From contig CAZJNH010000001.1 in NCBI GenBank assembly GCA_964547425.1, forward strand, positions 5,295-69,294: DNA of 64,000 nucleotides. Reading direction: 5' to 3'. Of the stretch, positions 6,819-58,721 are shown piece by piece (within the stretch, counting starts at the first letter, position 1; the number at the start of each line of letters is the position of its first letter). Origin of the DNA: an uncultured Candidatus Saccharibacteria bacterium (GTDB lineage: Bacteria; Patescibacteriota; Saccharimonadia; UBA4664; CAZJNH01). The translations under genes were made by a program, and so were the position numbers. The notes under the pieces were generated by a model. That model worked only from the letters and a program-made list of their open reading frames with translations. It was not told the origin of the DNA and did no database searches.

Positions 6819-7838
6819 ATGCCAAATTCCAGTTTCGATTATCAAAAAATCGTTGACTCACTACTAGCCAAGCTGCCAAAGGAGCGTGACCGGGACGTCC
6901 TGGCCCGTCGTTACGGGTTGGGATCTTCGGCTAGTGAAACGCTCGACAAAATCGGCCGCCGCTACGGAGTCACCCGCGAACGAGTCCGCCAAGTTGAACG
7001 GGCAGCCTTAAAACGTTTGGCTGGTGCAACCTCGGGCGAGATGAAGGCCGTCAACCAGCGTTTGGCAGCCGCACTGGCCCGAGAAGGAGGAGTAGCCGAG
7101 CTGTCTGCTTTTTCCGGAAAGCTCGGAGCCGAAACCCCCACCCAAAAATCCCAACTCTACTTTTTGGCGCGGTTGGCACCCGACATCGAGATCATCGACG
7201 AGAACAAAGAACTAGAAACGACTTTATTTGAACGCTCAGCCTTTTCGGCCGCCAAATTAACCGAATTAAGCCGCCAGCTCGCCGAGGCTTTTAAACGCCA
7301 TGGCAAGCCGGCTAGACTTACTGAGATCGCCGCCAAACTGCCCGCGCAACTCAGCCAATCTGCTCTGGGGAACTTAGCCTCCGTCAGCAAGAGCCTATCT
7401 AATTTCGGTCAGCTTTGGGGGCTAAAAACCTGGCCGGCCGTTAACCCTAAAAGCATTAAGGACCGGGCCTATTTGGCTCTGGCCCAACACTCCGAGCCGC
7501 TGCATTTTTCGGCTATCGCCATCCATATCGAAAAAATTACTCCTTCAGGCCGCAAAGTCACCACCCAAGCCGTCCACAACGAACTTATTAAGGACGAACG
7601 CTTTATCTTAATCGGCCGAGGCATTTACGCACTTTCCGATTGGGGCTACACCGCCGGCACTGTGGCTGATATGATTAAAGAAGTTCTGCGCGAGGAGCAG
7701 CCGCTCCATAAAGACGAAATTGTCAGGAGGGTACTTTTGCGGCGTCAGGTGAAGCAGGCAACCATTGCCCTGAACCTTCAGGAAAAAGACCATTTTGAGC
7801 GGGTCGCCAAAGCCACCTACCAGCTAAAGCACACATGA
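6819..7838 (+). CDS. sigma-70 region-4-like HTH protein with an uncharacterised C-terminal domain
   Basis: Residues about 20-70 match sigma-70 region 4.2 (RRYGLG...ETLDKIGRRYGVTRERVRQVERAALKRL). No regions 2 or 3 are recognisable, so the sigma similarity is limited to this segment. ATGA overlap with the downstream ATPase gene. Confidence 0.6.
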   Translation: MPNSSFDYQKIVDSLLAKLPKERDRDVLARRYGLGSSASETLDKIGRRYGVTRERVRQVERAALKRLAGATSGEMKAVNQRLAAALAREGGVAELSAFSGKLGAETPTQKSQLYFLARLAPDIEIIDENKELETTLFERSAFSAAKLTELSRQLAEAFKRHGKPARLTEIAAKLPAQLSQSALGNLASVSKSLSNFGQLWGLKTWPAVNPKSIKDRAYLALAQHSEPLHFSAIAIHIEKITPSGRKVTTQAVHNELIKDERFILIGRGIYALSDWGYTAGTVADMIKEVLREEQPLHKDEIVRRVLLRRQVKQATIALNLQEKDHFERVAKATYQLKHT

Positions 7839-10567
7839 ATATTCTAGGTTTTTTGGGCGAAATACTGCAGGTCGCTGGCCTGATACTGTTCCATTACTAC
7901 GGCTGGGTGCCTCTGGTCGGGGTGGTGGTTTATTTGACTTGGCAAAACCGGCGGCGCGTCGTGTGGCACCAAGGCATCGAGCAGTCTTTGCTATTAATTG
8001 AGGTACCGAAAGAAAATGAGAAGGACGCCCTAAGCGCCGAGCAAATGTTTGCCGCGTTGCATGGAATTTTGAGGCCCAAGTCCGATTTAACCAAGGAGGG
8101 CTCGCTCCAGGAGTACATCAGCTTTGAAATTGCCTCGATTGGCAACCGGATTCATTTCTACGTTTGGACGCCCAAGCACCTCAAAGACTTCGTCGAAGGC
8201 CAAATCTACGCCCAATACCCCAGCGTCCACATCAAAGAAGTCGAAGATGACTATGCCGGGCGGGAACACCTGAAAGGCAAGACCATCCTCGGAACCGAAC
8301 TGGCTCTAGATAAGGACCCGGTCCTGCCGATTAAAACCTACGAAAGTTTTGCCGTTGACCCGATTAGCTCGATCACCCAAGTGCTGTCAAAGCTCGATGA
8401 TGATGAAGAGATTTGGATTCAGGTTTTAGCCCGGCCGATCGAAGATGGCTGGAGCGAGGCCGGCAAAAAATTCCTCGTCGATTTGAAGGGCGGCAAAAAA
8501 GGCAAAACCCTTAAGGACGTTTTTCTTGAGTTGCCGCTTCACATAGTCTCAAACTCACTCCACGCCCTGGCCGCCCCGCCTGAAGAACCCAAAGAGGATA
8601 AGAAGGACGATAAAAAGGACGAGGATCCGACCAAAAAGTCCATCAGTGCCGCCGTTAGCGAAAAGGTGTCCAAACTGGGATACGAGGCCAAGATTAGATT
8701 GGTGTACCTTGGAACAAATAGCGAACAGGCTAGACTACGGATGCAGGCGTTAATCGGTTCATTTAAGCAATACAACACCTTAAATCTCAACGCCTTTGTG
8801 ACGACAGGGAACCGAAGCGACGAGGAACTGGTAGAGGAGTACCGCGCGCGCTTTTTCCCGCCGAAGGGTTCAATTATGAACACGGCGGAGCTGGCCAGTA
8901 TTTTCCATCTGCCGCACAAAAGCGTTGAAACCCCTAACATTGTCTGGAACACCGAACGAACTAGTGAACCGCCACCGACTTTGCCGATCGAAAACGAAGC
9001 CGACGCCGAAAACCTTAGTTTGTTTGGCCTTACCAACTTCCGCGGCCAGAGGCTTAAGTTCGGCATCAAGCGGCGCGACCGCGGGCGGCATCTTTATGTC
9101 ATCGGCCAAACTGGGACGGGTAAATCCATGCTGCTCCAGCTTTTGACTCTGTCCGATATCTACCAGGACCAAGGATTTGCCATCGTCGACCCTCACGGGG
9201 ACCTGGCCACCGACATTATGAAATATATTCCCGAGGAGAGGGTTAAAGACGTGATCTACTTCAACCCGGCCGACATCGAGTTTCCGATCGCCTTCAACCC
9301 AATGGAAGTAACCGACCCTAACTTCAAAAACAACATTTCCTCCGAAATCGTCGGCGTCTTAAAACGGATGTTCGAATCTTGGGGACCGCGGCTGGAGTAT
9401 ATTTTAAGGTTTACGATTCTGGCGCTCCTTGATTATCCGGATTCAACTTTGCTTGGCATTACCCGTATGCTAACCGACAAAGAGTTCCGCAAAAAAGTTG
9501 TCCGCGAGGTCCAAGACCCGGTGGTCAAAAACTTCTGGCTCAACGAGTTCGCTAGCTGGAACGACAAGTTCGCCAACGAGGCCGTCGCACCGGTCTTAAA
9601 CAAAGTCGGGGCCTTCACCGCCAACCCGCTGGTCAGGAACGTCATTGGCCAGCCAAAAAGCGCCATCAACCTGCGCAAGTTAATGGATGAAGGCAAGATC
9701 TTAATCGTCAACTTAAGCCAGGGACTAATAGGGGAGGACAACGCCTCCATCCTCGGCGCGCTAATGGTCACTAAGTTGCAGCTAGCCGCCATGAGCCGGG
9801 CCAATTTACCGCTCGACCAACGCCGGCCATTTTACTTGTACGTCGACGAATTCCAGAACTTCGCCACAGACTCATTTGCGGTCATTTTAAGCGAAGCCCG
9901 TAAGTATGGCTTGTATTTGACCGTTGCAAACCAATATATCGCTCAGATCGCCGAAACGGCCGTTAAAGACGCCGTGTTCGGCAACGTTGGCTCGATTGTA
10001 ACCTTCCGCGTCGGTGCCGACGACGCGACCTACCTTGCCAAGTACTTTAAACCGGTGTTTGAGGATACCGACATCGTCACCTTAAACAACCAACACATCC
10101 TGATTTCGATGAGTATCGACGGCGAGAAGTCTCCGCCATTTTCGGCTACCACCTTGATGATGCCTGAACCGGTCGAGGATATGAGCGCTAGCATTATCGC
10201 TCGCTCACGCCAGGACTACGCTAGCAGTAAGGCAGAGGTTACGGACGCGATCAGCAACTGGTCGTACGACATGCACCAAAAGACCAGAGGAGCAATGGAT
10301 GAGGAAGCGGCACCGGGCGAAGACGCGCCGGTTCGTATGGGTGAACAAAAAGCGAACACACCGAGTGAGCTCAAAAATCCGGAGCCTAGACCTGTCCAAC
10401 AGGAGAAAAAGCCTGAGCACAACAGAGATCATGATCGAGACAGGGATCGTCGTGATCGGCCAAAACACCACCAGCCGGAACCGAGAAAAGAGCAGCCAGC
10501 GGTAAATACACACAATCAGCCGGGCGAGTTGCACCAAGACGAAGTAGTGAAGCTGCACCAAGAATAG
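7835..10567 (+). CDS. membrane-anchored VirD4/TraG-family (type IV coupling-protein-like) ATPase
   Basis: 910 aa. N-terminal TM hairpin, Walker A (GQTGTGKS), DPHGD, Walker B (FYLYVDEFQNF), TraG/VirD4-like C-terminal region, and a charged low-complexity tail (DRDRDRRDRPKHH). No other T4SS genes are nearby. Confidence 0.7.
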   Translation: MNILGFLGEILQVAGLILFHYYGWVPLVGVVVYLTWQNRRRVVWHQGIEQSLLLIEVPKENEKDALSAEQMFAALHGILRPKSDLTKEGSLQEYISFEIASIGNRIHFYVWTPKHLKDFVEGQIYAQYPSVHIKEVEDDYAGREHLKGKTILGTELALDKDPVLPIKTYESFAVDPISSITQVLSKLDDDEEIWIQVLARPIEDGWSEAGKKFLVDLKGGKKGKTLKDVFLELPLHIVSNSLHALAAPPEEPKEDKKDDKKDEDPTKKSISAAVSEKVSKLGYEAKIRLVYLGTNSEQARLRMQALIGSFKQYNTLNLNAFVTTGNRSDEELVEEYRARFFPPKGSIMNTAELASIFHLPHKSVETPNIVWNTERTSEPPPTLPIENEADAENLSLFGLTNFRGQRLKFGIKRRDRGRHLYVIGQTGTGKSMLLQLLTLSDIYQDQGFAIVDPHGDLATDIMKYIPEERVKDVIYFNPADIEFPIAFNPMEVTDPNFKNNISSEIVGVLKRMFESWGPRLEYILRFTILALLDYPDSTLLGITRMLTDKEFRKKVVREVQDPVVKNFWLNEFASWNDKFANEAVAPVLNKVGAFTANPLVRNVIGQPKSAINLRKLMDEGKILIVNLSQGLIGEDNASILGALMVTKLQLAAMSRANLPLDQRRPFYLYVDEFQNFATDSFAVILSEARKYGLYLTVANQYIAQIAETAVKDAVFGNVGSIVTFRVGADDATYLAKYFKPVFEDTDIVTLNNQHILISMSIDGEKSPPFSATTLMMPEPVEDMSASIIARSRQDYASSKAEVTDAISNWSYDMHQKTRGAMDEEAAPGEDAPVRMGEQKANTPSELKNPEPRPVQQEKKPEHNRDHDRDRDRRDRPKHHQPEPRKEQPAVNTHNQPGELHQDEVVKLHQE

Positions 10568-15092: not shown

Positions 15093-16844
15093 TCATGCTG
15101 GTGCTATCCCCAGGTAGCGGATTAAGTATTTGGCGATATTGGCGAAAACCGGCACCGTCGTAGTCTCAGCAAAGGTACCGATCTGCGGCTGGTCAATCCT
15201 GACCATCATCACAAAACGCGGGTGGTTGGCAGGCAAAAAACCAACGAATGAGCCGATGGTTTTGTTGGTCAGGTACCCCGGCGCGTTAGGGTCCGGTATC
15301 TGGGCGGTACCGGTCTTGCCGGCTACCGTGTAGCCTTTAATTTGAGTCAGGTACCCGTTACCATGCTCAACCACCGTAATCATCATCTTGCGTAAATCCG
15401 ACGCAGCGCGCTCGGAAATTATGTGTCCATTGACCAGCCTTGGCGAAGTTTTTTTGACCTCTCCTTTAGGCGAGATAATTTGGTCGATCAACTGAGGCTG
15501 GTACAGCCTACCCCCATTGGCAATCGCCGTTGCCGCCATGACCATCTGCATAACCGTCACCGATAGACCCTGACCGAAACTCATGTTGGCGTAGTTAATG
15601 TTACGGCTGCCCGGCACGGGCACAAATCCAGCCGCCTCCGCCGGCTGCTCCACACCGGTCTTTGAACCAAACCCAAAGTGCTTCGTTATGTAATCAAACA
15701 GCGTCTGCTTCCCTACGGCGGTAATTTTGTCAGGGTCGCCGCCCAGCTGCTTCAGGATGAAGATCACGCCAGTGTTGAGCGAGAAAGTGATAACGTGGGT
15801 CATATCCTGCTTGCCCCATATCCGATTTTCAGCGTTGTGCACCGTGTAGCCGTCCGATTTGAACGAACCGGTGTCTTTGTACTTGGTGGTTGGCTTGACC
15901 TTGCCGGTGTCGAGCCCTGCTGCCATAGTAATAATCTTAAATCCGGAACCAGGCTCAAATAAGTTCGACACCACTCGGTTATCGAATACGTTATAGTCGG
16001 TCACAGCCCCGTAGTTGGCCGGGTCGTAGGTTGGATAGTTGGCCATCGCCCAGACTTTGCCGGTTTGAGGATCAACCACCACGACACTCCCTGATTTTGC
16101 CCGAACCGCTTTCACTCCCGCGGCTAAATATTTTTCGGCTTGAGCCTGGATATTACGGTCAATGGTTAAAACCAGATCGGAGCCATCTACGGGGGGTTTA
16201 ATCAGGTTTTTGGCGGTAGGAATAGGGTTTCCCTGGGTGTCGGTGATAGCTTTTAGCAGGCCGTTTTGGCCGGCTAGGTCTTTGTTGAAGTAACCCTCAA
16301 CCCCGTACTGCCCAGCGCCGTCACCATTAACAAAGCCGAGCAGCTGGGAGGCCAAATCGCCCTCCGGATAAGTGCGGTACTGATTTTCGGTTAAACCGAT
16401 TCCAAGCAGCTTTAACGAACCAATCTTGCTGGCCAGGGCCGACTCAACCCTGCTTTTTAAGACGACATATTGGCCGCCCCGGTTTAGTTTATCCAAATAT
16501 CCTTGAGGGCTATCGCCCGTAACGTGAGCCAGGCTCTTAGCGGTATCGGCCCGATCCTTGTTTTGAATTAAGCTGGGGTCGGCGTAAAGCAGGTACAGAT
16601 TTTGGTTCAGCGCCAGCGGTACGGTCTGGTCACCATCGTGGGCCATGATTTCGCCGCGCCGAGCCGGAACGTCGAATTTGCGCGAGTGCGATTTGGCGGC
16701 CTGAGCGGTATAAAAGCCGTGTTTAACTACCTGCAAACTAAATAGCCTCCAGGCAAGTAAAATTCCAGCCGCGAACATCACAAGCGTCAGCAAACTGATG
16801 CGCCGCGTCTGGACTTTGGTTTCCGTATAGTTAAACTCGGCCAT
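15093..16844 (-). CDS. ftsI: class B PBP, division transpeptidase FtsI
   Basis: N-terminal TM, PBP dimerisation domain, transpeptidase motifs (SGFK, SLN, KTGTA). Confidence 0.85.
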   Translation of the reverse strand: MAEFNYTETKVQTRRISLLTLVMFAAGILLAWRLFSLQVVKHGFYTAQAAKSHSRKFDVPARRGEIMAHDGDQTVPLALNQNLYLLYADPSLIQNKDRADTAKSLAHVTGDSPQGYLDKLNRGGQYVVLKSRVESALASKIGSLKLLGIGLTENQYRTYPEGDLASQLLGFVNGDGAGQYGVEGYFNKDLAGQNGLLKAITDTQGNPIPTAKNLIKPPVDGSDLVLTIDRNIQAQAEKYLAAGVKAVRAKSGSVVVVDPQTGKVWAMANYPTYDPANYGAVTDYNVFDNRVVSNLFEPGSGFKIITMAAGLDTGKVKPTTKYKDTGSFKSDGYTVHNAENRIWGKQDMTHVITFSLNTGVIFILKQLGGDPDKITAVGKQTLFDYITKHFGFGSKTGVEQPAEAAGFVPVPGSRNINYANMSFGQGLSVTVMQMVMAATAIANGGRLYQPQLIDQIISPKGEVKKTSPRLVNGHIISERAASDLRKMMITVVEHGNGYLTQIKGYTVAGKTGTAQIPDPNAPGYLTNKTIGSFVGFLPANHPRFVMMVRIDQPQIGTFAETTTVPVFANIAKYLIRYLGIAPA

Positions 16845-16867
16845 TATCCTAGCCTCTCGTGATGGCT

Positions 16868-17188
16868 CTATTTAATGAATGTGGTGGGCCCTTCGGAGAC
16901 CAATCCTTTAACGGCATTGGACGATGAAATGCTGTGGATCGATTGTAACCTGGCGGCCTCAATTTCAAGATCCTGTTTTTGCGACAGCAGCTGGTTTTTC
17001 TGGCTTTTAAGCTGGTTGAGCTTGGTACCGAAGACGCTGGTTTTGGTGATCTGTGTCAGGTACAAAAGCGCCAGCAAACAAACAACCGCGATGGTAACGA
17101 AGCGGCTTGAGACCGGCCCGACCATAACCTTGCTGCGGCTGCGGTATAAGTTCTGGTTGCGCCTGGCGGCGACTGTGAAGGTGGTCAT
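16868..17188 (-). CDS. ftsL: FtsL-like division protein
   Basis: 106 aa. Short cytoplasmic N-terminus, one TM, coiled-coil tail. Sits between rsmH and ftsI, the usual FtsL position. Confidence 0.5.
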   Translation of the reverse strand: MTTFTVAARRNQNLYRSRSKVMVGPVSSRFVTIAVVCLLALLYLTQITKTSVFGTKLNQLKSQKNQLLSQKQDLEIEAARLQSIHSISSSNAVKGLVSEGPTTFIK

Positions 17189-31521: not shown

Positions 31522-32691
31522 CTATTTGAAGAGTTGGAGGGTGCGTTCGAGTTGAGGATCAACCAAGCTGTTCTTGTTGTCAGGCTGCTTAATTTCAACA
31601 TCCGGCTTAATCCCCAGATGGTCAATCCCCCGCCCTTTCGGGGTAAACCAATGTGCGATCGTGACCTTTAGTTCACTGCCGCCATCTAGGTTAATTATGT
31701 CCTGGACGCTCCCTTTGCCGAAGCTCTTCTCCCCAACTAGTTTCGCTGCACCTTGGTCCTGCAAAGCTCCAGCAACAATTTCGCTGGCCGAGGCGCTGCC
31801 GCCGTTGATCATTACTAGGAGCTGGGCACCTATTAGTTTACCGCCGGCTTGGGCCTTCAAGACCTTTTCGGTCTTGCCGGCGTGCCTCTCGGAGACCACT
31901 ACTTTACCGGCCGGCAGAAATTGGCTCGCTACTTGAACCGCTGCATCGAGATAACCACCGGGATCGTTTCGTAAGTCGAGCAAAAACTTGGTGGCGCCTT
32001 TTGCCCTCAGCTCCGTTGCTGCTTGGTCGAGCTTGGTACCGGTATCATCAGCGAACCGGGTAACTTGAATATAGCCGACTCCGCCTTTCATACTCCACTT
32101 CACGCTTGGCACCATGATGATCTGGCGCTTGATAGTGACGTCAAAAACCTTCAGCCCGCGGGCTAACTTGAGCTTAACTGAACTGCCGGCTGTGCCGCGG
32201 ATTTTGGTGACGGCTTGGTCGACCGTCAAACCTTGGGTGTCTTTGCCGTCGATGGCGATAACTTCGTCTCCGGGCCGCAAACCTGCCGACTGAGCCGGTG
32301 AGCCCTCGAGCGGCGCAACTATTATCAGCTGGCCGTCTTTTTGGCCGAGCTCAGCCCCAATTCCGCTCAAGGTGCCGTTTAGATCGTCATCGAGCTCCTT
32401 GGCCTCCCCGGCCGTCAAATAGACCGTATAGGGATCTCCGGCCGCTGCTACTAAACCAGCTTTTGCCCCGTCGAGCAGCTTGCCTTGTTCGAGCTTGCCG
32501 TCGAATTTGTCTTTTAGCAGCTGCTCGATCTTGGTTAAAGAATAATAACTGTTCGTCGATTTGGCTTGGTATTGGGAGTAAACCACGCCCATCCCGAAAC
32601 CATAGCCAATCAGTCCAACGGCAATAAAAAAACCGAGCGCCGCTCGCTTGGCTCTAGCGGACTTTTTGGGATGCCTTAATGAATGAACCAC
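31522..32691 (-). CDS. ctpA: carboxy-terminal processing peptidase (S41, PDZ-containing)
   Basis: TM/signal, PDZ (GLRPGDEVIAIDG), S41 catalytic region (GGSASASEI). Confidence 0.8.
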   Translation of the reverse strand: MVHSLRHPKKSARAKRAALGFFIAVGLIGYGFGMGVVYSQYQAKSTNSYYSLTKIEQLLKDKFDGKLEQGKLLDGAKAGLVAAAGDPYTVYLTAGEAKELDDDLNGTLSGIGAELGQKDGQLIIVAPLEGSPAQSAGLRPGDEVIAIDGKDTQGLTVDQAVTKIRGTAGSSVKLKLARGLKVFDVTIKRQIIMVPSVKWSMKGGVGYIQVTRFADDTGTKLDQAATELRAKGATKFLLDLRNDPGGYLDAAVQVASQFLPAGKVVVSERHAGKTEKVLKAQAGGKLIGAQLLVMINGGSASASEIVAGALQDQGAAKLVGEKSFGKGSVQDIINLDGGSELKVTIAHWFTPKGRGIDHLGIKPDVEIKQPDNKNSLVDPQLERTLQLFK

Positions 32692-38024: not shown

Positions 38025-39176
38025 TTATCGCTTTAAAGCCTTAAGTAAGTCGCGCTTAGAGCGGATCCAGGCCCGGGCAGAATATCCCAGAGCGCTGAAA
38101 CCGACTAGGCCGCCAGCCGCGCCTTCGGCACCGGTCTGCGGCAATGGGCCGCTAGGCAGGTGGCCGCCGCCAACGTTACAGTTGACTTTGCAAACCGGGG
38201 GCTTGTGGTTACAGTTGAACGTACAAACCGGAGGTTTACAGTTGTTCTGCTCTTGGCAGGTAGGCGGTTTACAGGTGTTAGTCTGCTCACAGGGCGGGGT
38301 TTGAGTGACGATCTTTACGATCGCAACGTCACACCCGTGCTGGTTCCCGTTAGCAGTGAAACACGCTTGGTTAGTAATGAACCCGGCAGTACTTTGGGTA
38401 ACTTTGACGGTGATGTCAAAGAACTTCAGTTTACCGGCCGCAATGTCTCCAAAGTTGGATTGAATGTGGCGGGTGGACGGGTTGCTAACTAACTCAACTC
38501 CAGCGGGCAGATCGTCGGTCATAACCACGTTCTGCATTACTGAAGTACCATTGTTGGTAATGGTGACATCGTATTTTAGGGTGTCACCGGTGTTGACCTC
38601 AACGGCGTGGGCCTGATCGTCGGCGGCGTGGTTGGTGTTAGGGTCGGTAGTCTCATCAATCACACGCTTAAAGATCTGGCCGAACGGGGCGGAAATCTGT
38701 TTTACGGGGTTGCCGCAAGATTTGATGATCGCCCAGTGGAAGGTACCACCAGAAACGTTAACGAACGCCGGCAACGAGTTGCTGACGAACGACACTGAAG
38801 TCGGGCGCATCCACAGGCTGCCGTCATGGACGGAACCTTGCAGGAATTCGCGGCCTGAGCTCCAGACGTTGGTGGCTACAACGTGACCATTTACGATCAC
38901 TTGACCGCTTTTGGTAACCGAGCCATCAACCGTTGAGCTGGACAAAATGCCAGCCTCGGTGATGCCGCGGCCTTCGTTGTAATAGATTTGTTTTAGGTTG
39001 GCGGAGCTGTTTACTCCGTCACCTTGGTTAATACGTTTAACTAAAGTCGCTTTGTCGCCCGCACCACCGTTCATCACGGCGTTGGAGCTAAAGTCAGCGG
39101 CCAAAACATGTTTGGCGCCAACAGCAATTCCGGTCACTAGCGCTAAGGCTAGTAAAATTTTCTTGATCTTGAACAT
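38025..39176 (-). CDS. LPXTG-anchored surface protein with Cys-rich CxPPxC repeats
   Basis: Signal peptide. C-terminal LPQTG followed by a hydrophobic stretch and a basic tail (sortase sorting signal). Four CKPP(T/V)C-type repeats. Strong SD (AAAGGAGG). Confidence 0.7.
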   Translation of the reverse strand: MFKIKKILLALALVTGIAVGAKHVLAADFSSNAVMNGGAGDKATLVKRINQGDGVNSSANLKQIYYNEGRGITEAGILSSSTVDGSVTKSGQVIVNGHVVATNVWSSGREFLQGSVHDGSLWMRPTSVSFVSNSLPAFVNVSGGTFHWAIIKSCGNPVKQISAPFGQIFKRVIDETTDPNTNHAADDQAHAVEVNTGDTLKYDVTITNNGTSVMQNVVMTDDLPAGVELVSNPSTRHIQSNFGDIAAGKLKFFDITVKVTQSTAGFITNQACFTANGNQHGCDVAIVKIVTQTPPCEQTNTCKPPTCQEQNNCKPPVCTFNCNHKPPVCKVNCNVGGGHLPSGPLPQTGAEGAAGGLVGFSALGYSARAWIRSKRDLLKALKR

Positions 39177-39314
39177 TAATGTTCCTCCTTTGAGGAAAAG
39201 TTTGTTAATTAATAGAAAGCTAGAAGCTAATCGCTAAAAGCTTTGTAAGGCTTTAAATGATGACAATGTCAAAGGGCCTCTGCCCTGCAGCCGAATAGTC
39301 AAAGATCTTCAAGA

Positions 39315-39366
39315 AGTTCAAAAAAGTGAAACTCCCGGGAGGAGGAGTAAGTATCCTCCTCCCGGG
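39315..39366 (-). terminator. intrinsic terminator of the GC-rich island operon
   Basis: Perfect 13-bp GC stem (CCCGGGAGGAGGA/TCCTCCTCCCGGG), followed on the minus strand by AGUUUCACUUUUUU. Confidence 0.45.
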
Positions 39367-39389: not shown

Positions 39390-40322
39390 CTACGCGCTTC
39401 CGGCACTTGTGCCGTTGCCCGTAGAGCATGTGCCGTCCCCATTTGCGTGGGCATTGGGGTCGGAACAGTTACCGCCGCCCTGGTTCTGGTCCGGCTGTTT
39501 GCCGTTGCTGACCTTCCCAGGACCGTTGGTGTCACCCGTTGACGTCGGGTTGTTCGTCGGCTTGGTGTTGGTTGGCGTTGTTGTGCCACCGCCACCGGAC
39601 GGAGTCACCACGGTTGTTCCGGGGCTAACCGGAGTTACCGGTGCTGACGGGACCGTCGTCGACGTCTGCGGAGCCGTATTCCCCTGCGGCGACGAGGCTC
39701 TGTGGGGAGCCACGTTGCTGTCAGGCGTCGGTGCTTTGTTGGTCGACGGCGCGGCCTTGCCTTGCGGCTTGGCCGGTGCCGACACCTTCGGCGCCGGTTT
39801 GGCAACCGGCTCCGTACTGGTGCTGCGACCCGTGACCGTGGCAGCCGCGAGGGCCAGTACGATCAGCACCCACCAAGGCTTTCGGCGCTTGCGGGACCTG
39901 GCGGTCTCGAGCGTCGTGGTCTTGGTGCCCTGCGGCAGAGTCAGAACCTGAGTCTGCATTGCGGTCGTGTCGCCACGAGCCGTCCTGCGAATCAGGTCTG
40001 TGGCCACCGCCGTGACGATCGCCTTCTCTTCGACCGTCAGCCGTGGCTGGGGAGCCAGGTTGACCGTGCGAACCGCGAGGTTCGCGTCGGCCGTCGGCTC
40101 GACGATCGTGATCTTCGGCACCGGCCGGGTCGCGGTCTGCGCCTGCTGCGGAGCGACTCCCAACATCTGGGACAGCTCCTCGTTCAAACGCGAATCGCCC
40201 GGGCGGTCACCGAAGTGGTGAAGCCGCCTGATCTCCTCGCGCTCGAGCTCCTTCTCCGCCGCCTCCCGCTCGATGCGGACTCGGAGAGGATCCTTGTGCA
40301 GCGTTGAGCTTGCCATTGTCAC
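39390..40322 (-). CDS. island protein: N-in single-pass membrane protein with a Pro/Thr-rich disordered ectodomain and a C-terminal Cys motif
   Basis: 310 aa. Cytoplasmic charged N-terminus, TM (WWVLIVLALAAATV), low-complexity P/T/S-rich tail ending GNCSDPNAHANGDGTCSTGNGTSAGS. Strong SD (GGGGAGGTG). Higher GC than the flanks. Confidence 0.5.
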   Translation of the reverse strand: MTMASSTLHKDPLRVRIEREAAEKELEREEIRRLHHFGDRPGDSRLNEELSQMLGVAPQQAQTATRPVPKITIVEPTADANLAVRTVNLAPQPRLTVEEKAIVTAVATDLIRRTARGDTTAMQTQVLTLPQGTKTTTLETARSRKRRKPWWVLIVLALAAATVTGRSTSTEPVAKPAPKVSAPAKPQGKAAPSTNKAPTPDSNVAPHRASSPQGNTAPQTSTTVPSAPVTPVSPGTTVVTPSGGGGTTTPTNTKPTNNPTSTGDTNGPGKVSNGKQPDQNQGGGNCSDPNAHANGDGTCSTGNGTSAGSA

Positions 40323-40327
40323 CTCCC

Positions 40328-40927
40328 CTACTTTGATCCGGCGCTTTCGCCGCCGGTAACGCAGTTGCCGTCACCATCCGGATGGGTGGTATCGGCCGGA
40401 CAGGTCTCGCCGTGCTGGGCATCGGTTACCCGCTGCCCTTGGCTCTGGCTCGACGATGACGATGCTGAACTTGAATCGCCGCTCAGTGCCGGGAGGTTGG
40501 CTAATGCGCCGCCCGACCCGGAACTGCTGTTGCTACTCGAACTCGAACCGTTGGTTGCGGCCGAATTCGAGTTTGAAGCGTCAGACGAGGTACTGGAACT
40601 GCTTCCCGGAGCCGCCGTCGCCGATGGTTTCGGCGTGTAAATCGGCATCTGGGATGAATCGGTGGCCTTGGACGCGGGATCGAACACCGTGTGCGTCTTC
40701 GATCCCAGGAGGAAAAACACCCCGGCGATCGCGACGAACAAGAAAGCCACCCACGCCCAACCCTTGCGGTTTGCGGGCAGGAAGCGCTTCTCGTGCTGCT
40801 CACGCATGTCGATGTTCTGCGTCTGGTCCGGCGGCGTCTGGGGCACGGCGGGGATGTGTTGCGTCTCCGCGTGTGCCTGGTCATACGCTGCAGCCCACTC
40901 GTTCCGCTCTTCGGTACCGAGTGCCAC
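40328..40927 (-). CDS. island protein: paralogous single-pass membrane protein with a Ser-rich ectodomain and the same C-terminal Cys motif
   Basis: 199 aa. GTG start with a GAGGAGG SD. TM (WAWVAFLFVAIAGVFFLL). Ser-rich tail ending GETCPADTTHPDGDGNCVTGGESAGS. Confidence 0.5.
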   Translation of the reverse strand: MALGTEERNEWAAAYDQAHAETQHIPAVPQTPPDQTQNIDMREQHEKRFLPANRKGWAWVAFLFVAIAGVFFLLGSKTHTVFDPASKATDSSQMPIYTPKPSATAAPGSSSSTSSDASNSNSAATNGSSSSSNSSSGSGGALANLPALSGDSSSASSSSSQSQGQRVTDAQHGETCPADTTHPDGDGNCVTGGESAGSK

Positions 40928-41958
40928 TATGCCTTCACCTCCTCGTACGTGTGTGCGACGGCCTCAAGGATCTGATCTCTGTCGTAGCTGTCGTGGGCTT
41001 TGGTGAGTTCTTTCATCAGCTCACCTCTGTCTCCACCACCTCTTACGGCAGCGACCATCACGTTGACGGCCTTGAGGAAATCCTTATCCAGCCGCCAGGC
41101 GTCCTTGTCCTTTTTCTTGCGCCGTTTCGGCTTGTCGGGTTTGGAACCGTTGCTCGACGGCTTGGACTTGGAGTTGTCCTCCGGCAGCTTAGGTCGCTGC
41201 TGGAGCACGTCATCGCGGAGCTGTTCGATGTGATGAACGAACTCGCTGCGCGCGTTGTCGATCAACTCCTTGACCCGGTCGCCATGGCGGCGATCCCGGC
41301 GGTCAAGTTCGTCTTGGAGGCTCTTACCGAAATCGGTAAGCAGTTCCTCCACAACGGTTCGGATCGCGGCGATCGAGACAGACTCGTCGCCGGCCCGATT
41401 TGCGTCCGGCTTACTGCCCTGCTCGACCACTACGTTCCCCTTTCGGTTGGATTCTGGCCTGATCCGCAGCCCCTCGGACTCTCTCAGAGAGTCTGCCAGC
41501 GTGCTCGGGAGGAGCTCTCCCGACATCAATTGTTTCGCTACAGCGGTCTCCGGCTTGTTGGCCGGATCCTCTTGACGGCGAAACTCGGCATACTCTCTGA
41601 GGTACGGGACAAACTGCAATGCTTCGCGGAGGGCGTTGACGGTCTGGTTGCGCGAAGCACGTTTCGCGTTCTCATCGAGATCGCGATAGTACTCCAGCAA
41701 CCGTTCGAGCGTCTTCACTGCCGCCTTTGAGGGCTTTCCTGAAAACTTCACGTTCTCCGGCAACATCTCCCCGAGCAGGAGCTTGACCGCTAGTGAAGCG
41801 GCCTTCTCCTCTTCGAGATTAAAACCCGGCAGTTGCTCGACTAGCTCCAGCATATTGCCGAGGCAGTCGAGCTTTGCTTCTTCATCCAAGTTACCGGCGG
41901 CATCCTCTTTCTGGTAGGCCGCGGCGCCTTCTCGGATGACTTTTTTCACATCCTCCAT
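40927..41958 (-). CDS. island protein: charged cytoplasmic hypothetical protein
   Basis: 343 aa, no TM, highly charged. Strong SD (GAGGAGGTG). First gene of the three-gene island operon. Confidence 0.5.
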   Translation of the reverse strand: MEDVKKVIREGAAAYQKEDAAGNLDEEAKLDCLGNMLELVEQLPGFNLEEEKAASLAVKLLLGEMLPENVKFSGKPSKAAVKTLERLLEYYRDLDENAKRASRNQTVNALREALQFVPYLREYAEFRRQEDPANKPETAVAKQLMSGELLPSTLADSLRESEGLRIRPESNRKGNVVVEQGSKPDANRAGDESVSIAAIRTVVEELLTDFGKSLQDELDRRDRRHGDRVKELIDNARSEFVHHIEQLRDDVLQQRPKLPEDNSKSKPSSNGSKPDKPKRRKKKDKDAWRLDKDFLKAVNVMVAAVRGGGDRGELMKELTKAHDSYDRDQILEAVAHTYEEVKA

Positions 41959-42070
41959 CCCACCTCCTCATCCGGTAACCCAATCCGCCAATCAGGCGAA
42001 ACTTATTTTTCAAAGTTTTGCGCCCAGTCGGGCGAACAAGGCCTCGGTTTAAGAGGCGATTCGGTGATGC

Positions 42071-42156
42071 GTCTGTAGACAGTAGCCTGCCAGCGCCTTA
42101 CCTGGGCGGCAAGTAAGGGTGCTGGCAGATTGCTGCCTACAGACTGTTTTGGTTTT
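42071..42156 (+). other. orphan long imperfect hairpin with a 3' T-tract (terminator-like; possible small-RNA 3' end)
   Basis: GTCTGTAGACAGTAGCCTGCCAGCGCC ... GGTGCTGGCAGATTGCTGCCTACAGAC followed by TGTTTTGGTTTT. No upstream plus-strand gene. Confidence 0.3.
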
Positions 42157-42377
42157 AGGTCTTGATTGACCTTTGACTATTCGGCTGTCAAGGACCCGCG
42201 TTTTGGCAAAAATAAAACCCCGGGTCAAGCCCAGAGGATTGTTTGGTCCGCCCACATTATGTTGGCGATCCGCCTCACAGCTTGCCAGAACGTGAATGCG
42301 ATAAGCCTAGCATAATTCGTCAATCTTGTCAATGCTTATTATGCTTTATGCCAAAACTCTTATGGCTTTTTGCCAAA

Positions 42378-45041
42378 TTACTTCGAGTGAGCCTGATGTT
42401 CAGGAGAGTTGATTAATCCGCATTTTTTGTACTTTAAACCGCTTCCGCAAGGACAAGGATCGTTGCGGCCTATCTTCTTTTTAGAATCTAGTGGAGAGGC
42501 GCTAGCAACGAGAGGTTTGGTAGTAGTAACGCCTGATTGTTTGCGCGTTGCCGGTTTCTTTTTGAATTCCTCTCCCCCTCCGCCAGTCAAAGCTTTCTCT
42601 GCGGCCTTGGTTAAGGCCGTTTCTACCGGCGCTTGCTGCTGCTGCATCGTAATCTCAACCTTAAAGATCGTAGCGGCGATTTCAGCCTCCATCGCCCCAA
42701 TTAACTGCTGAAACAACTTGTAACCCTCAGCTTTATACTCCACTAACGGGTCTTTTTGCCCGACAGCTCGCAGTCCAATACCCTCCCGTAATCCGGTCAT
42801 AGCATCTAGGTGCTCGATCCATAAATTATCCATCACACGAAGATACGTTAGACGCTCCGCCAGCTTCATTAGCTCCTGGCCAACTTGCTCCGTTCGCCAG
42901 TCATACAAAGCCTCCGCATGCTTCATTAATATATGGACGACCTCCTCCGGCAGTGATTTCTTGATCTGGGCAATCAGTTTGTCATCGAGTGGCACGATGT
43001 TCGCAACCGCCGTCACCACTTTGTCGTGGTCCATGACAGTAGTCCTAACGTCGGTGTGGGCGGTTACGATAGCCTTAAATTCGCCGTCAATCATCTCTAT
43101 AATTTCGGGTCGTAGGTTCTGGTTCTCGAGAGCTTTGCGACGTTTGGCGTAAATCACCTCACGGTGGCGGTTCATCACATCATCGTACTCAACCAGGTTT
43201 TTGCGGATATCGAAGTTGTGGCCTTCCACCTTTTTCTGGGCGCTCTCGATAGATTTTGACACCATCGAGTTCTCGATCGGCGTGTCATCATCGATCCCTA
43301 AACTGCCCATTAGTCCGGCAATGCGCTCACCGCCAAAAATCCGCATCAAATCATCTTCCAGCGACACGTAAAACCGGCTAAAACCAGGGTCGCCTTGCCG
43401 ACCAGAACGACCTCGCAGCTGATTGTCGATCCGGCGAGCTTCGTGGCGTTCCGACCCAACCACAGCCAACCCGCCGAGCTTATCGACGCCCTTTTCCAGC
43501 ACAATGTCGGTACCACGACCTGCAATGTTGGTCGCCAGTGTAACCGCGCCCTTTTGCCCGGCGCCTGCCACGATCGTAGCTTCTTTCTCGTTGTTCTTGG
43601 CGTTTAGGATTTCGTGAGGCACCTTCAGTTGTTTCAAGAAACTGCCTAATAATTCATTCTTCTCGATCGAAACCGTACCAATTAGCACCGGCTGGCCCTT
43701 GTCGTGCATCTCCTTCACGTCCATAGCGATCGCCCGAAACTTGCCCTCTTCGGTCTTATAAATCTTATCGGGGAAGTCCTGGCGAACCATATCGCGGTTG
43801 GTCGGGATTACCACCACGTCTAGCCCATAAATTTTGTGGAACTCCTCGCTCTCGGTCTCGGCGGTACCGGTCATTCCCGATAGTTTCTCGTACAACCGGA
43901 AGTAGTTCTGGAAGGTTATAGTCGCCAGCGTCAGTGACTCCTGCTGGATGTGTACTCCTTCCTTTGCCTCAACCGCCTGGTGCAAACCCTCGCTCCAGCG
44001 CCGGCCGGGCATTAACCGACCGGTAAACTCGTCGACAATAATAACTTCGTCGTCTCGCACCACGTAATCCCGGTCGCGGCGAAACAACGCCTTGGCCTTC
44101 AGCGCCTGCTCGATGTGGTGAACCTCGTCGATCCGCCCCGCCTCATAGATATTATCGACTCCCAGAGCCTTTTCGATCTTGGCGATCCCCTCATCGGTTA
44201 AGCTCGCGGCTTTGAGCTTTTCATCCAGCGTGTAATCTTTTTCCTCATTTAAAGTCTCCGAGAGTTTCGCGAACTGATAATACTTGTCGGTCGACTCTTC
44301 TGCTGGAGAAGAAATAATCAAAGGCGTTCGGGCTTCATCAATTAAAATCGAGTCGACTTCGTCCACGATCGCGAAATGCAGCGGCCTCTGGACCATTTTA
44401 GCCACATCATCCACCATGTTGTCACGCAAATAGTCAAAGCCAAATTCGTTGTTGGTTCCGTAGGTAATGTCGGCCTGATACGCCTCTTGCCGGCTAACTG
44501 GCTTCAAGCGCTTGAGCCGCTCATCGTCGTGGTCCGGATTATTAAATTTTGGGTCAAACAATAATGCCTGCTCATGAATAATCACTCCGGTGGTTAAGCC
44601 GAGTAAATTATAAATTTCGCCCATCCAGCCAGCGTCACGTTGCACCAGGTAATCGTTCACACTGACTACGTGGACACCTTTGCCCGTCAGCGCGTTTAAA
44701 TACACCGGCAGCGTGGCCACCAGCGTTTTACCCTCACCCGTCTTCATTTCGGCGATTTTACCCTCGTGGAGCACCATACCGCCTATTAACTGGACATCGT
44801 AATGCCGCTGCTTCAGCTTGCGTTTACCGGCCTCACGCACCAGCGCAAACGCCTCCGGCAATACGTCATCAAGAGTTTTACCGCCGACGATCTCTTTCTT
44901 AAGCCGCGCGGTCTCTTTAGATAAATCCTTAACTTTCTCAAACTTGGCTTCAAGATCGTTGATTTGGGCAACAATCGGCTCCAGACGCTTCACCGCCTTG
45001 GCGTTCTGATCCCCGAGTAGTTTGGTGATTAAATTCCGCAT
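42378..45041 (-). CDS. secA: preprotein translocase ATPase SecA
   Basis: 887 aa. DEAD-like motor motifs and a C-terminal zinc-binding tail (CPCGSGLKYKKC). Confidence 0.92.
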   Translation of the reverse strand: MRNLITKLLGDQNAKAVKRLEPIVAQINDLEAKFEKVKDLSKETARLKKEIVGGKTLDDVLPEAFALVREAGKRKLKQRHYDVQLIGGMVLHEGKIAEMKTGEGKTLVATLPVYLNALTGKGVHVVSVNDYLVQRDAGWMGEIYNLLGLTTGVIIHEQALLFDPKFNNPDHDDERLKRLKPVSRQEAYQADITYGTNNEFGFDYLRDNMVDDVAKMVQRPLHFAIVDEVDSILIDEARTPLIISSPAEESTDKYYQFAKLSETLNEEKDYTLDEKLKAASLTDEGIAKIEKALGVDNIYEAGRIDEVHHIEQALKAKALFRRDRDYVVRDDEVIIVDEFTGRLMPGRRWSEGLHQAVEAKEGVHIQQESLTLATITFQNYFRLYEKLSGMTGTAETESEEFHKIYGLDVVVIPTNRDMVRQDFPDKIYKTEEGKFRAIAMDVKEMHDKGQPVLIGTVSIEKNELLGSFLKQLKVPHEILNAKNNEKEATIVAGAGQKGAVTLATNIAGRGTDIVLEKGVDKLGGLAVVGSERHEARRIDNQLRGRSGRQGDPGFSRFYVSLEDDLMRIFGGERIAGLMGSLGIDDDTPIENSMVSKSIESAQKKVEGHNFDIRKNLVEYDDVMNRHREVIYAKRRKALENQNLRPEIIEMIDGEFKAIVTAHTDVRTTVMDHDKVVTAVANIVPLDDKLIAQIKKSLPEEVVHILMKHAEALYDWRTEQVGQELMKLAERLTYLRVMDNLWIEHLDAMTGLREGIGLRAVGQKDPLVEYKAEGYKLFQQLIGAMEAEIAATIFKVEITMQQQQAPVETALTKAAEKALTGGGGEEFKKKPATRKQSGVTTTKPLVASASPLDSKKKIGRNDPCPCGSGLKYKKCGLINSPEHQAHSK

Positions 45042-56902: not shown

Positions 56903-57624
56903 TACTTTCCTACTATCGCGGTAAAGGCCAGGTAATTATTTAATAGGTGGAGGAAGATGCCCGGCCAGATCGACTTGGTCTTGCGGTACATTATACAGAG
57001 TAGGCAACCGAGCACAAAAGTGTAGACCGAGACGTTGAGCTGCAGGTGTGCAAAGGCAAACAGCAAACTTGAACCGACAATGCCCGCGATAAGTCCAAAC
57101 CGATCAGCTAAAGCCGGGAAAATAAAACCGCGAAACACCACCTCTTCGATCGCCGGCGGGATAAACACTAAGGCGATCAAACTTAAACTTGGAGACGAGG
57201 ACGCTCCCTTGGTGAATTCATTTACTTGAGGCTGGGTTGGGTTGAAACTGGGAAACAAATGACCAACGAGACTGAATAGAACCGCCGAGGTAATTAGGAA
57301 CACAGCGCCGGCCAGCAGGATATAAAGCGAGGCTTTAAACAGATTAAAGTGCTTGAGCCCCAGCCTTTCCCAGCCAACCTTATACTTGACCAGAAAATGA
57401 CGCATTAGGGCAAAAGCCGCAATGCCATCTAGAACTAACAGTACAAACGAGGCTCTGACTTCGCCTTTAAGCAGTCCGTGCAGTAGAGACGAGGCAGGCG
57501 GCAAAACCGGCGCCAAGACGCGTAGGACCAGGACGATCAACGCAGGCAGCCCAATCCAAGCCGCGAAGAACACCACCAAAGCTTGCTTCCAGTTCCATGG
57601 AACGTTGAACGGTTTGGCGCTCAA
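56902..57624 (-). CDS. CPBP-family (CAAX/Abi) intramembrane metalloprotease
   Basis: EEVVFRG motif and FAFAHL, polytopic. Confidence 0.7.
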   Translation of the reverse strand: MSAKPFNVPWNWKQALVVFFAAWIGLPALIVLVLRVLAPVLPPASSLLHGLLKGEVRASFVLLVLDGIAAFALMRHFLVKYKVGWERLGLKHFNLFKASLYILLAGAVFLITSAVLFSLVGHLFPSFNPTQPQVNEFTKGASSSPSLSLIALVFIPPAIEEVVFRGFIFPALADRFGLIAGIVGSSLLFAFAHLQLNVSVYTFVLGCLLCIMYRKTKSIWPGIFLHLLNNYLAFTAIVGK

Positions 57625-58721
57625 ATAATCCGCCTGATGTCGAAGTAGGTAATTAAAATTATCAGCAAAATCAGCGCCACAAACCCAACACTGTTGATCA
57701 CCGACTCCACCTTGTGCGAAAGTTCCTTGCCGGCCAGCTTAGTGATCGCCAGCATCGCCAACCGGCCGCCGTCCAGCGCCGGGATCGGGAAGGAGTTGAT
57801 AACAGCTAATGAAACCGTAATCGAGACCACAATAAGCGCGATATAGCGCCAGCCAAGAAACAAAATGTTGCTAATGATTGAGGTAATACCAACTGGCCCG
57901 ACAGCCGTAGCTTCAGTCGGAACAGCTTTACTAAACAGTGAGCCGATCAAGTGCGGGATACTAACGATCAGGCGGCCGAATCCGGCAACTGTGCCGGCCG
58001 CGATCTGCCCAAACAGCTTGGCCGATACCACAACTGCCTTAACCGGGGAGTATCTGAGCAAATAAGTCTCAAACGGCAAAACCCCAAGTTGGCCGCCCTC
58101 TTTTGTACCTTTATGCAGTTTGATGTCTTGGGTTAAATTTTGGCCCTTTCGCACTATTTCAAACTTCACGCTTTGGCCGGCGTGAGCCAGAGTAAAGACC
58201 TTGAGCTCTTCGGTTTTACTGAAACTTTGACCGTTACCGCTTGCGACGATATCCCCTTTTTGCAGTCCAGCTTGCTTTGCGGCCGAGTCAGGTGTGATGT
58301 CTAAAACCAGTACTTGGGATGGCTTTGCAAAGCTGGCCTCGGTTTGGTCAACGGCAAAGTTAGGGATCGGGGGCAAGCCGGTTGAAGCTAAGTAAAACAG
58401 CAGGATAAAGCCCAAAAGTGCGTTCATCGCGACGCCAGCTAAGAGAATTTTGGCTTGTTTACCAAATTTCGCGGCTCCGAAACTGCCAGGAGTTTTGGTA
58501 GCAGAATTCTCACCCTTCAGCCGAACAAAACCTCCAATCGGCAACCAGTTAACTGACAGGATCGTGCCGCCTCGTTTGACGCCGTATAAGCGCGGCGGCA
58601 AGCCGAACCCAAACTCCTCAACATCAACGCCCGAACGTTTTGCGGCAATAAAATGCCCCAGCTCATGGATAAAAACGAGCAGGGACAGCGTTAACACCAT
58701 AATCAAAATGCTTATGATCAT
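57621..58721 (-). CDS. rseP: site-2 protease RseP (M50 zinc metalloprotease with PDZ)
   Basis: HELGHF zinc motif, PDZ region, LDGG motif. Confidence 0.8.
   Translation of the reverse strand: MIISILIMVLTLSLLVFIHELGHFIAAKRSGVDVEEFGFGLPPRLYGVKRGGTILSVNWLPIGGFVRLKGENSATKTPGSFGAAKFGKQAKILLAGVAMNALLGFILLFYLASTGLPPIPNFAVDQTEASFAKPSQVLVLDITPDSAAKQAGLQKGDIVASGNGQSFSKTEELKVFTLAHAGQSVKFEIVRKGQNLTQDIKLHKGTKEGGQLGVLPFETYLLRYSPVKAVVVSAKLFGQIAAGTVAGFGRLIVSIPHLIGSLFSKAVPTEATAVGPVGITSIISNILFLGWRYIALIVVSITVSLAVINSFPIPALDGGRLAMLAITKLAGKELSHKVESVINSVGFVALILLIILITYFDIRRII

Follow-up and report, generated by a model that had tools for sequence, protein, structure and literature searches.

The 64 kb stretch of DNA analysed here (the window) belongs to the core chromosome of a bacterium of the Saccharibacteria (TM7, class Saccharimonadia), and the analysis concerned three of its minus-strand genes, p343, p199 and p308, which in that order form one operon. 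The first, p343 (positions 40927–41958, minus strand), encodes a charged protein of 343 residues (61 Lys + Arg, 66 Asp + Glu) that is predicted to be cytoplasmic. The second, p199 (40328–40927, minus strand), encodes a protein of 199 residues that is predicted to cross the membrane once with its N-terminus inside (N-in), and which has a Ser-rich ectodomain and a C-terminal Cys motif. The third, p308 (39390–40316, minus strand), has the same predicted single-pass, N-in architecture with a Pro/Thr-rich ectodomain and a C-terminal Cys motif. The reading frame of p308 covers 39390–40322 (310 residues from a GTG codon); the ATG at 40316, which gives 308 residues, is the start chosen by public gene callers. 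Strong, correctly spaced Shine–Dalgarno (SD) sites were found at all three starts: GAGGAGGTG ahead of the p343 ATG at 41958, GAGGAGGTG again upstream of the p199 GTG, and GGGAGGTG 5 nt ahead of the p308 ATG at 40316. The stop codon of p343 and the start codon of p199 overlap as TAGTG at 40927. A strong terminator (39334–39366, minus strand; 13 bp stem, ten G–C pairs, T-rich tail) follows p308, and a terminator-like hairpin lies upstream of the operon. This layout fits the co-transcription with the 343-residue protein that had been proposed in an earlier note on this DNA. The GC contents of p343 at codon positions 1, 2 and 3 (GC1/2/3) are 0.66, 0.36 and 0.71, a coding-type pattern that the long antisense open reading frames (ORFs; 424, 201 and 191 residues) lack. 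The same three genes were called on an independent Logan contig. The three genes are genuine and form one operon.

The last ~30 residues of p199 and p308 share the motif C-x5-H-x2-GDG-x-C-x-TG-x1-2-SAGS, which spans C176–S198 in p199 (CPADTTHPDGDGNCVTGGESAGS; 40334–40402, minus strand) and is encoded at 39396–39467 (minus strand) in p308 (CSDPNAHANGDGTCSTGNGTSAGS). Its two Cys residues are the only ones in each protein, and conservation reaches the free C-terminus. Both tails are acidic (pI 4.2–4.4). BLASTP aligned the two proteins over their C-terminal 29 residues only (52% identity, E = 7 × 10⁻⁵). A Smith–Waterman comparison of the last 40 residues scored 75, against 29.3 ± 5.7 for composition-matched shuffles, and none of 5000 shuffles scored as high; for the whole ectodomains, the observed score was reached by five of 5000. 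An hhalign comparison spanning the transmembrane (TM) segment to the C-terminus gave a probability of 78% and an E value of 1.9 × 10⁻⁵. The C-terminal homology described in the earlier note is therefore far above composition-matched chance, and the paralogy of p199 and p308 is borne out at least from the TM segment onward. The DNA encoding the tails is only 57% identical, with different codons at six of the 16 conserved residues, and the proportion of synonymous differences (pS, 0.52–0.60; near saturation) exceeds that of nonsynonymous differences (pN, 0.33–0.38). We therefore take the similarity to be old and maintained, not a recent copy; by this codon comparison, the motif is an old feature under purifying selection.

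Neither the rest of the window nor 850 kb of related loci contains the strict motif, and a database search with the tail-motif alignment returned no candidates. Scans of Pfam, NCBIfam and the PDB gave no match, in agreement with the view that the motif lies outside any described family, and the isolated tails matched nothing in Pfam even at E values up to 10. The tails bear some resemblance to thrombospondin type-3-like repeats (CP...DGDG..C), which Pfam did not confirm; the profile of this family was unmatched by the tails (E up to 10) and by the full proteins, and the assignment to these or other Cys/Asp calcium-binding repeats was rejected. A diversity-generating retroelement target was rejected as well, as the substitutions between the tail-coding segments are mixed and the ORFs of the window that were scanned with Pfam include no reverse transcriptase.

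Topology was assigned using hydropathy and the positive-inside rule only. p199 and p308 each have one hydrophobic segment with a Lys/Arg-rich N-terminal flank. In p199, the predicted TM helix comprises residues 55–77 (40697–40765, minus strand), within which the stretch 58–76 has a Kyte–Doolittle (KD) value of 2.34. In p308, the putative TM segment WWVLIVLALAAATVTG (residues 148–163; 39828–39875, minus strand) is preceded by SRKRRK and is borderline by hydropathy, with a KD value of 1.39 for the best 19-residue window; its assignment is less certain because the segment is short (16 residues). The predicted cytoplasmic N-domain of p308 has 144 residues. The ectodomains consist of 72–76% Ser, Thr, Pro, Gly, Ala and Asn. 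The description of both proteins as N-in and bitopic with a low-complexity ectodomain is supported by these predictions, with less certainty for the TM segment of p308. Neither protein has a C-terminal LPXTG motif, hydrophobic segment or basic tail (the chains end ...CVTGGESAGSK and ...CSTGNGTSAGSA). No cleavable N-terminal signal peptide or folded stalk domain was found either; the TM segments lie 55 (p199) and 147 (p308) residues into the chains, and Pfam recognized no domains.

Structure models were calculated using AlphaFold2 (AF2). The model of p199, from a two-row alignment, has a predicted local distance difference test score (pLDDT) of 49.3, and consists of a short N-terminal helix and the TM helix, which has the highest pLDDT of the model, with the remainder below 50. 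This run, which had been proposed as a check for a disulfide knob, yielded no confident fold; the low-confidence remainder of the model would fit disorder and proves nothing on a folded knob. The single-sequence model of p343 (pLDDT 45.7) is helical, in this low-confidence model only.

Database searches returned almost nothing for these proteins. For p308, a word-index search of 5.8 × 10⁹ proteins found only the protein itself, and an exhaustive HMMER search of 1.84 × 10⁹ representatives found itself and P0006, a 3128-residue eukaryote-like repeat protein that was matched through repeated weak stretches and was rejected as spurious; no relative was found in viral contigs. For p343, the word index likewise returned only the protein itself, no relatives were found in GTDB genomes, JGI metagenomes or viral contigs, and tblastn against phage and plasmid records was empty. 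Sequence searches of the PDB gave no match, and searches of Pfam, NCBIfam, PHROGs and the PDB gave nothing above noise for the proteins tested, so that p343 remains, as first described, without a recognizable motif. Weak PHROGs and PADLOC matches were dismissed, as they involve TM and low-complexity regions only. Among them was the anti-phage protein PD-T4-6 (PADLOC; E = 1.9 × 10⁻⁴ and 4 × 10⁻³), in which only profile positions 310–493 of 510 were matched; this is the non-kinase C-terminal part, aligned over TM and low-complexity sequence, and the N-terminal catalytic part was unmatched.

The earlier note had likened p199 and p308 to membrane anti-sigma factors or surface adhesins. The first likeness was not upheld: no anti-sigma or sigma domain occurs in the three proteins, and no extracytoplasmic function (ECF) sigma gene is adjacent. 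In Pfam and NCBIfam at E values up to 1, p308 and p199 gave sub-threshold chance matches only, with no zf-HC2, RskA, RsdA or similar domain. p343 has no sigma domains, and the sole sigma-like ORF in the window (6819–7838) is ~32 kb away. Like zf-HC2/RskA-type anti-sigma factors, which often have a Pro/Thr-rich tail, p199 and p308 are predicted to be N-in single-pass proteins with a cytoplasmic N-terminal domain and have a co-transcribed cytoplasmic partner. Unlike them, they have no anti-sigma domain, and neither their partner gene nor any other adjacent gene encodes a sigma factor; they are moreover two paralogues with a common C-terminal Cys loop in a hypervariable cassette. The second likeness was upheld in part, as p199 and p308 themselves lack adhesin, signal-peptide or sortase features, but their genes lie directly upstream of one for a genuine LPXTG/CLIPPER (DUF11) wall-anchored protein.

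Comparison with other Saccharimonadia placed the operon in a wider context. SecA (42378–45041, minus strand) is 85% identical to that of locus L002, from an uncultured Saccharibacteria metagenome-assembled genome, which is the nearest relative, and 53–70% identical to that of further loci titled Saccharibacteria or Saccharimonadia; a SecA-based metagenome scan turned up nothing closer than 69% identity, and L002 remained nearest. The DNA similarity to L002 covers secA and ~300 nt beyond it, to window position 42074, is lost over the three genes and returns at 39315, just past the operon terminator. The corresponding slot in L002 (3651–6773) encodes proteins of 294, 278 and 461 residues, the last being a multi-TM protein with a Cys-bearing Pro-rich ectodomain. 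Loci L006, L037 and L040 (SecA identity 62–64%) have their own three-gene blocks directly upstream of an LPXTG gene of the same type as p383, the gene that adjoins the operon in the window. The recurring order is a charged cytoplasmic protein, a membrane protein with a Cys ectodomain, a bitopic protein with a Pro-rich ectodomain and the LPXTG gene; L002 is an exception, as two of its proteins are cytoplasmic and the third is a multi-TM protein. In L007 and L008 the cassette is reduced to one Pro-rich gene ahead of the LPXTG gene, and in L004, L005, L035 and L038 the adhesin gene is present with neither cassette nor repeat.

When the cassette proteins of the window were compared with those of L002, L006, L037 and L007 (BLASTP, shuffles and hhalign), nothing significant was found, and cassette proteins from different genomes could not be aligned with one another, two weak L006–L037 links excepted. 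Fragments suggestive of the tails (GGKCSDPKA in L002, HGDGT in L006 and GGGN..DP in L007) were not supported by the hidden Markov model (HMM) of the tail and were discarded. As there is no protein homology, the equivalence of the cassettes rests on flanking DNA, position, gene order and topology or architecture. On these grounds, the operon in the window is the allele that this genome carries of a three-gene cassette recurring in several Saccharimonadia. The cassette is hypervariable, its proteins having diverged past recognition between genomes. Variation is also visible at short range: L037 and L040 are 98–99% identical in the flanks, but the segments that encode the Cys-rich ectodomain of gene 2 (L037 12749–13112, L040 about 16743–17122) cannot be aligned as DNA. 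The swapped ectodomain comprises ~120 residues, from the last TM segment to the stop codon, with ~40% protein identity and all six Cys residues kept. No tandem repeats of note were found in the DNA.

The cassette is also set apart by composition, with a GC content of 0.58–0.66 compared with ~0.52 for its surroundings. The GC content at third codon positions (GC3) is 0.71–0.78 for the cassette genes of the window versus 0.60–0.65 for their neighbours, 0.72–0.80 versus 0.49–0.59 in L002 and 0.76–0.93 versus 0.60–0.66 in L037 (11489–14252); it is marginal in L006 (0.59–0.65 versus 0.52–0.60), and the single related gene of L007 has 0.48 versus 0.36–0.39. In the window, L002 and L037 the excess over adjacent core genes amounts to 0.1–0.3, and the gene for the cytoplasmic protein at the head of the cassette shows it as well. 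Biased gene conversion at a recombination hot spot would fit this pattern, and so would a separate origin.

An inverted repeat bounds the cassette. The left arm (42168–42187; core AGCCGAATAGTCAAAG on the minus strand) is complementary at 19 of 20 positions to the right arm (39288–39307), which lies beyond the operon terminator, where similarity to L002 resumes. These are the only two copies in the 64 kb, with 0.03 expected. The arms in L002 (3498–3513 and 6860–6875) have the same 16-mer in the same arrangement, and homologous arms of 27–32 nt were found in L006 (8668–8699 and 12046–12077), L037 (11407–11433 and 14486–14512) and L040 (15409–15435 and 18496–18522). The 16 nt core AGCYGRATAGTCAAAG is almost invariant across eight arms, and changes at its two variable positions are concerted and shared by both arms of a genome. 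In all genomes, the core is followed by G in the left arm and by A in the right arm. The predicted duplex of the arms has an energy of −43 to −57 kcal/mol in every genome, and sense and antisense energies show no consistent bias. The repeats may be inversion or exchange sites, the two sides of a long-range RNA stem or paired operators for one regulator. As with the RNase III stems around rRNA genes, complementary sequences lie several kilobases apart around a transcription unit; unlike in those stems, the right arm is past the operon terminator and the energies have no consistent strand bias.

Between secA and p343 lies a leader with several conserved elements. A promoter-like site, P1 (42304–42332, minus strand; TTGACA, 14 nt, TGn, TAGGCT, with an extended −10 element), was recognized from the sequence and alignments ~45 nt past the secA stop codon; it scores below the threshold of the consensus scanner, and L002, L006 and L037 have it in conserved form ahead of their cassettes. 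A terminator-like hairpin with a T-run (42218–42236, minus strand) lies between P1 and the left arm, ~70–85 nt after P1. Its position is kept in L002 with a different stem sequence; in L006 and L037, P1 and the motif CTGTGGGGTGACA are retained and the leader terminator is absent. This hairpin may terminate secA or act as an attenuator in the leader, and the stretch from P1 to the left arm might give rise to a small RNA or serve as an attenuating leader; no conserved structure was found in this stretch across four genomes.

A second, conserved hairpin of ~27 bp with the apex UG-CCGCC-CA (42065–42147, minus strand) lies between the left arm and p343. The same hairpin precedes the cassettes of L002 (3552–3634) and L006 (8727–8803) and is absent for L037/L040, so that three of the four cassette lineages have it. 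In the cassette-less loci L004 (14982–15060), L005 (13972–14050), L035 (6399–6477) and L038 (8997–9075) it has a promoter-like site on one side and the LPXTG gene on the other, and a further copy in L061 (4395–4473) is on a contig that stops before any downstream gene. Over eight sequences and 27 pairs, 93.5% of cells are paired, compared with 76% in shuffles and ~38% in slid controls; compensatory changes occur at 18 of the 27 pairs, a level reached by none of 500 shuffles. The apex is invariant and the sense strand has many G–U pairs. Searched with a covariance model, 451 kb of sequence yielded exactly one copy for each locus and no others; the copy in the window scores 69.5 bits (E = 3 × 10⁻¹⁵). 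No Rfam family corresponds to this hairpin. It is a candidate for a new cis-regulatory leader RNA, and its occurrence ahead of either the cassette or the adhesin gene suggests that the operon and the adhesin gene follow one regulatory logic. Six matches of the 17 nt apex in viral contigs, all of them within coding sequence, were attributed to chance. An integron attC site was considered, since the hairpin stands at the boundary where homology to L002 ends. This assignment was rejected: the sense strand of the hairpin has many G–U pairs, the hairpin stands ahead of the adhesin gene even where there is no cassette, and no IntI integrase is present.

The gene directly downstream of the cassette, p383 (38025–39176, minus strand), encodes the wall-anchored surface protein referred to above. 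It comprises a signal peptide-like N-terminus, a conserved N-domain, a CLIPPER/DUF11 domain (PF01345, E = 3 × 10⁻¹³; TIGR01451), a Cys/Pro-rich linker with the repeat C-x5-C-KPP-x-C ... CKPPVC, an LPQTG motif, a TM segment and a basic tail. Its homologues adjoin the cassettes in other genomes. p383 is 47–51% identical to the adhesins of L006, L007 and L008 and only 28% identical (in the C-terminal half) to that of the nearest genome, L002, which suggests that alleles of the adhesin have been replaced too. In fibrillar adhesins, the kind of protein to which p383 belongs, CLIPPER domains make up the stalk and are isopeptide-bonded (PMC12617251). p199 and p308 are like these adhesins in having a presumed distal module on a stalk in a Gram-positive-type envelope; they differ in their N-terminal TM anchor in place of LPXTG, in a stalk that is disordered and not Ig-like, and in a distal module of ~25 residues. 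By eye, an (S/D/N)CGN(P/I) motif with a Pro-rich linker closes the globular ectodomain in L002 (5388–6773), L010 (10646–11932), L011 (6853–7959) and the N-terminal domains of p383-type proteins; the motif occurs in both LPXTG and TM-anchored proteins of the locus, and a common domain is possible.

The local gene order is hpf, secA, the three-gene operon, the LPXTG protein gene, prfB, an M23 peptidase gene, ftsE, ftsX, a CHAP protein gene, a Ctp protease gene and pyrG, and the remaining genes of the window have cell-wall, division and translation functions. No tRNA or Rfam family was found in the window. A protein with Sigma70 region 4 and HARE-HTH, followed by a 910-residue protein with TrwB/VirD4-like coupling-protein and HerA-like ATPase features, is encoded among cell-wall genes at 6819–10567 (plus strand). 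A Ctp-type S41 C-terminal processing protease with a PDZ domain (31522–32691, minus strand) and an RseP-type M50 site-2 protease with PDZ (57621–58721, minus strand) are also encoded; the substrates of such proteases are membrane or secreted proteins.

Our preferred interpretation, which we hold with slightly more confidence than doubt, is that p199 and p308 are genuine paralogous membrane-anchored proteins with the N-terminus inside and the C-terminus outside, and that they belong to a cassette for strain-specific surface display or recognition beside the adhesin. A signal-anchor helix would hold both proteins in the membrane, and a disordered stalk of ~100–120 residues (Ser-rich in p199, Pro/Thr-rich in p308) would be long enough to cross a Gram-positive-type wall. 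The tip would be a loop of ~25 residues closed by the two Cys residues (C-x12-C), with the His and Asp-Gly-Asp-Gly residues, followed by the conserved SAGS C-terminus. The loop would most likely be disulfide-closed or metal-bound, and a disulfide is favoured by analogy with the even-numbered conserved Cys residues in the ectodomains of other cassettes; the first ectodomain Cys pairs in every cassette form short loops (C-x9-12-C). p343 may dock on the cytoplasmic N-termini of p199 and p308. The cassette would work alongside the adjacent adhesin, and its target may be a host cell, a partner or a phage. We infer the role in strain-specific surface recognition from the position of the cassette, its hypervariability and the leader that it has in common with the adhesin gene. 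Several points weigh against this interpretation. The HMM of the tail finds no related tail in other cassettes, and none of the three proteins has protein-level homology to the cassette proteins of other genomes. The allele is carried by one genome and one Sequence Read Archive (SRA) contig only. Topology was derived from hydropathy and the positive-inside rule, with a hydrophobic segment in p308 of just 16 residues (KD 1.39), and neither AF2 model is confident (pLDDT 45.7 and 49.3).

Other explanations address how the block varies and where it came from. The repeats could be recombination sites at which the 2.9 kb block (the hairpin and three genes) is inverted or swapped, turning the cassette on, off or to another allele. 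We regard such phase variation or exchange as unlikely; it concerns regulation and would be compatible with the surface-recognition interpretation. Flanking inverted repeats of the kind that bound invertons are present in the window, L002, L006, L037 and L040, and in these five genomes the arms of 20–32 nt combine a near-invariant core with genome-specific matching changes on both sides. The interior is non-homologous between genomes with conserved flanks, alleles have been replaced between near-identical strains and the raised GC3 fits a recombination hot spot. Yet no site-specific recombinase was found among the scanned window ORFs of at least 150 residues, the block has the same orientation in all five assemblies, and the Logan contig is collinear and unbroken through the right arm. 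The constant difference between the bases that follow the left and right cores argues against frequent homogenization, and the swap between L037 and L040 is internal to gene 2 and not bounded by the repeats. The cassette thus resembles invertons and shufflons in being a surface-protein block between inverted repeats that match within a genome, with extreme variation between strains; it differs from them in having no recombinase nearby and no opposite orientation among the five assemblies, and in that the block of 2.9–3.3 kb is a whole operon with its leader and varies by sequence replacement instead of inversion. A bolder and, in our view, rather unlikely proposal is that the block is an undescribed programmed-variation locus of Saccharibacteria, exchangeable or invertible, that sets the strain-specific surface identity of these epibionts, be it for recognizing hosts or for evading phages, with the Cys-loop tails of p199 and p308 as exposed specificity determinants and the hairpin as a new cis-regulatory RNA. 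Alternatively, the GC-rich block may be foreign passenger DNA, an acquired remnant of a mobile element bounded by terminal inverted repeats and having no envelope role. The elevated GC and GC3, the inverted repeats and the lack of the cassette in relatives that have the adhesin gene (L004, L005, L035 and L038) would suit such an origin, which is nevertheless very improbable: no transposase or integrase and no similarity to phage or plasmid records or viral contigs was found, the block occupies the same place beside the adhesin gene across lineages in which SecA identity falls as low as 62%, it uses the conserved leader hairpin of the locus itself, and its tail motif is under purifying selection.

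The remaining alternatives concern what the proteins do. In a transmembrane signalling system, p308, p199 or both would sense an outside cue by means of their tails, and the N-termini would hold or release p343 as a regulator. The predicted arrangement of a cytoplasmic N-domain (144 residues in p308), one TM segment and an extracytoplasmic tail is what such a system would have, as is translational coupling to a cytoplasmic partner, and the window encodes both an RseP-type site-2 protease and a Ctp protease, although both are housekeeping enzymes. We judge this decidedly unlikely, since anti-sigma, sigma, helix–turn–helix and kinase domains are lacking in all three proteins, p343 has no DNA-binding signature or homologue, and no ECF sigma gene is adjacent. 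The weak PD-T4-6 matches are limited to TM and low-complexity regions, and the first-gene proteins are quite different in equivalent cassettes, which would be unusual for a regulator–sensor pair. The tails might instead handle metals, with C-x5-H-x6-C and Asp-Gly-Asp-Gly binding a metal ion (Zn, Cu or Ca) on the cell surface, be it to capture or sense the metal or to dimerize p199 with p308, a reading that is also compatible with surface display. Their invariant residues are Cys (the only ones in each protein), His and Asp, the tails are acidic and conservation runs to the free C-terminus. This is nonetheless improbable: no Pfam family was matched by the isolated tails or the full proteins, the larger ectodomains of other cassettes have an even number of conserved Cys residues, which is more disulfide-like, and the AF2 model contains no confident structure. 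That the long frames are a spurious by-product of GC-rich low-complexity DNA is almost certainly wrong. Two of the three proteins are mostly of low complexity and the opposite strand also has long ORFs, but these lack the coding-type GC1/2/3 pattern of p343, the three starts have strong, well-spaced SD sites with translational coupling, terminators stand at both ends of the operon, and the Cys, His, GDG and SAGS residues have been kept despite synonymous divergence.

A parallel to the surface-recognition cassette is provided by a Gracilibacterium, another bacterium of the candidate phyla radiation (CPR), in which a locally hypervariable gene encodes a Pro/Thr-rich protein that is predicted to be extracellular and that its authors read as attachment-related and under diversifying pressure (PMC6851277). 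Both cases involve a hypervariable Pro/Thr-rich surface protein in a CPR bacterium; unlike the nucleotide repeat array within one large gene of the Gracilibacterium, the cassette is a three-gene, repeat-bounded unit without tandem repeats in its DNA. Taken alone, p199 and p308 would be ordinary-looking lineage-specific envelope ORFans, and their interest lies in the cassette context and the leader hairpin. The hypervariable cassette bounded by inverted repeats and the conserved leader RNA hairpin go beyond what was described in the earlier note. The locus also illustrates that ORFans can be linked to a conserved genetic element through non-coding flanks once protein similarity has been lost. 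Saccharibacteria live attached to other bacteria, and to our knowledge the determinants of which host a given strain binds are largely unknown. By uniting a wall-anchored adhesin, fast-evolving membrane-anchored proteins predicted to be exposed, conserved bounding repeats and a leader RNA, this locus is a candidate for setting strain-specific surface identity in these bacteria.

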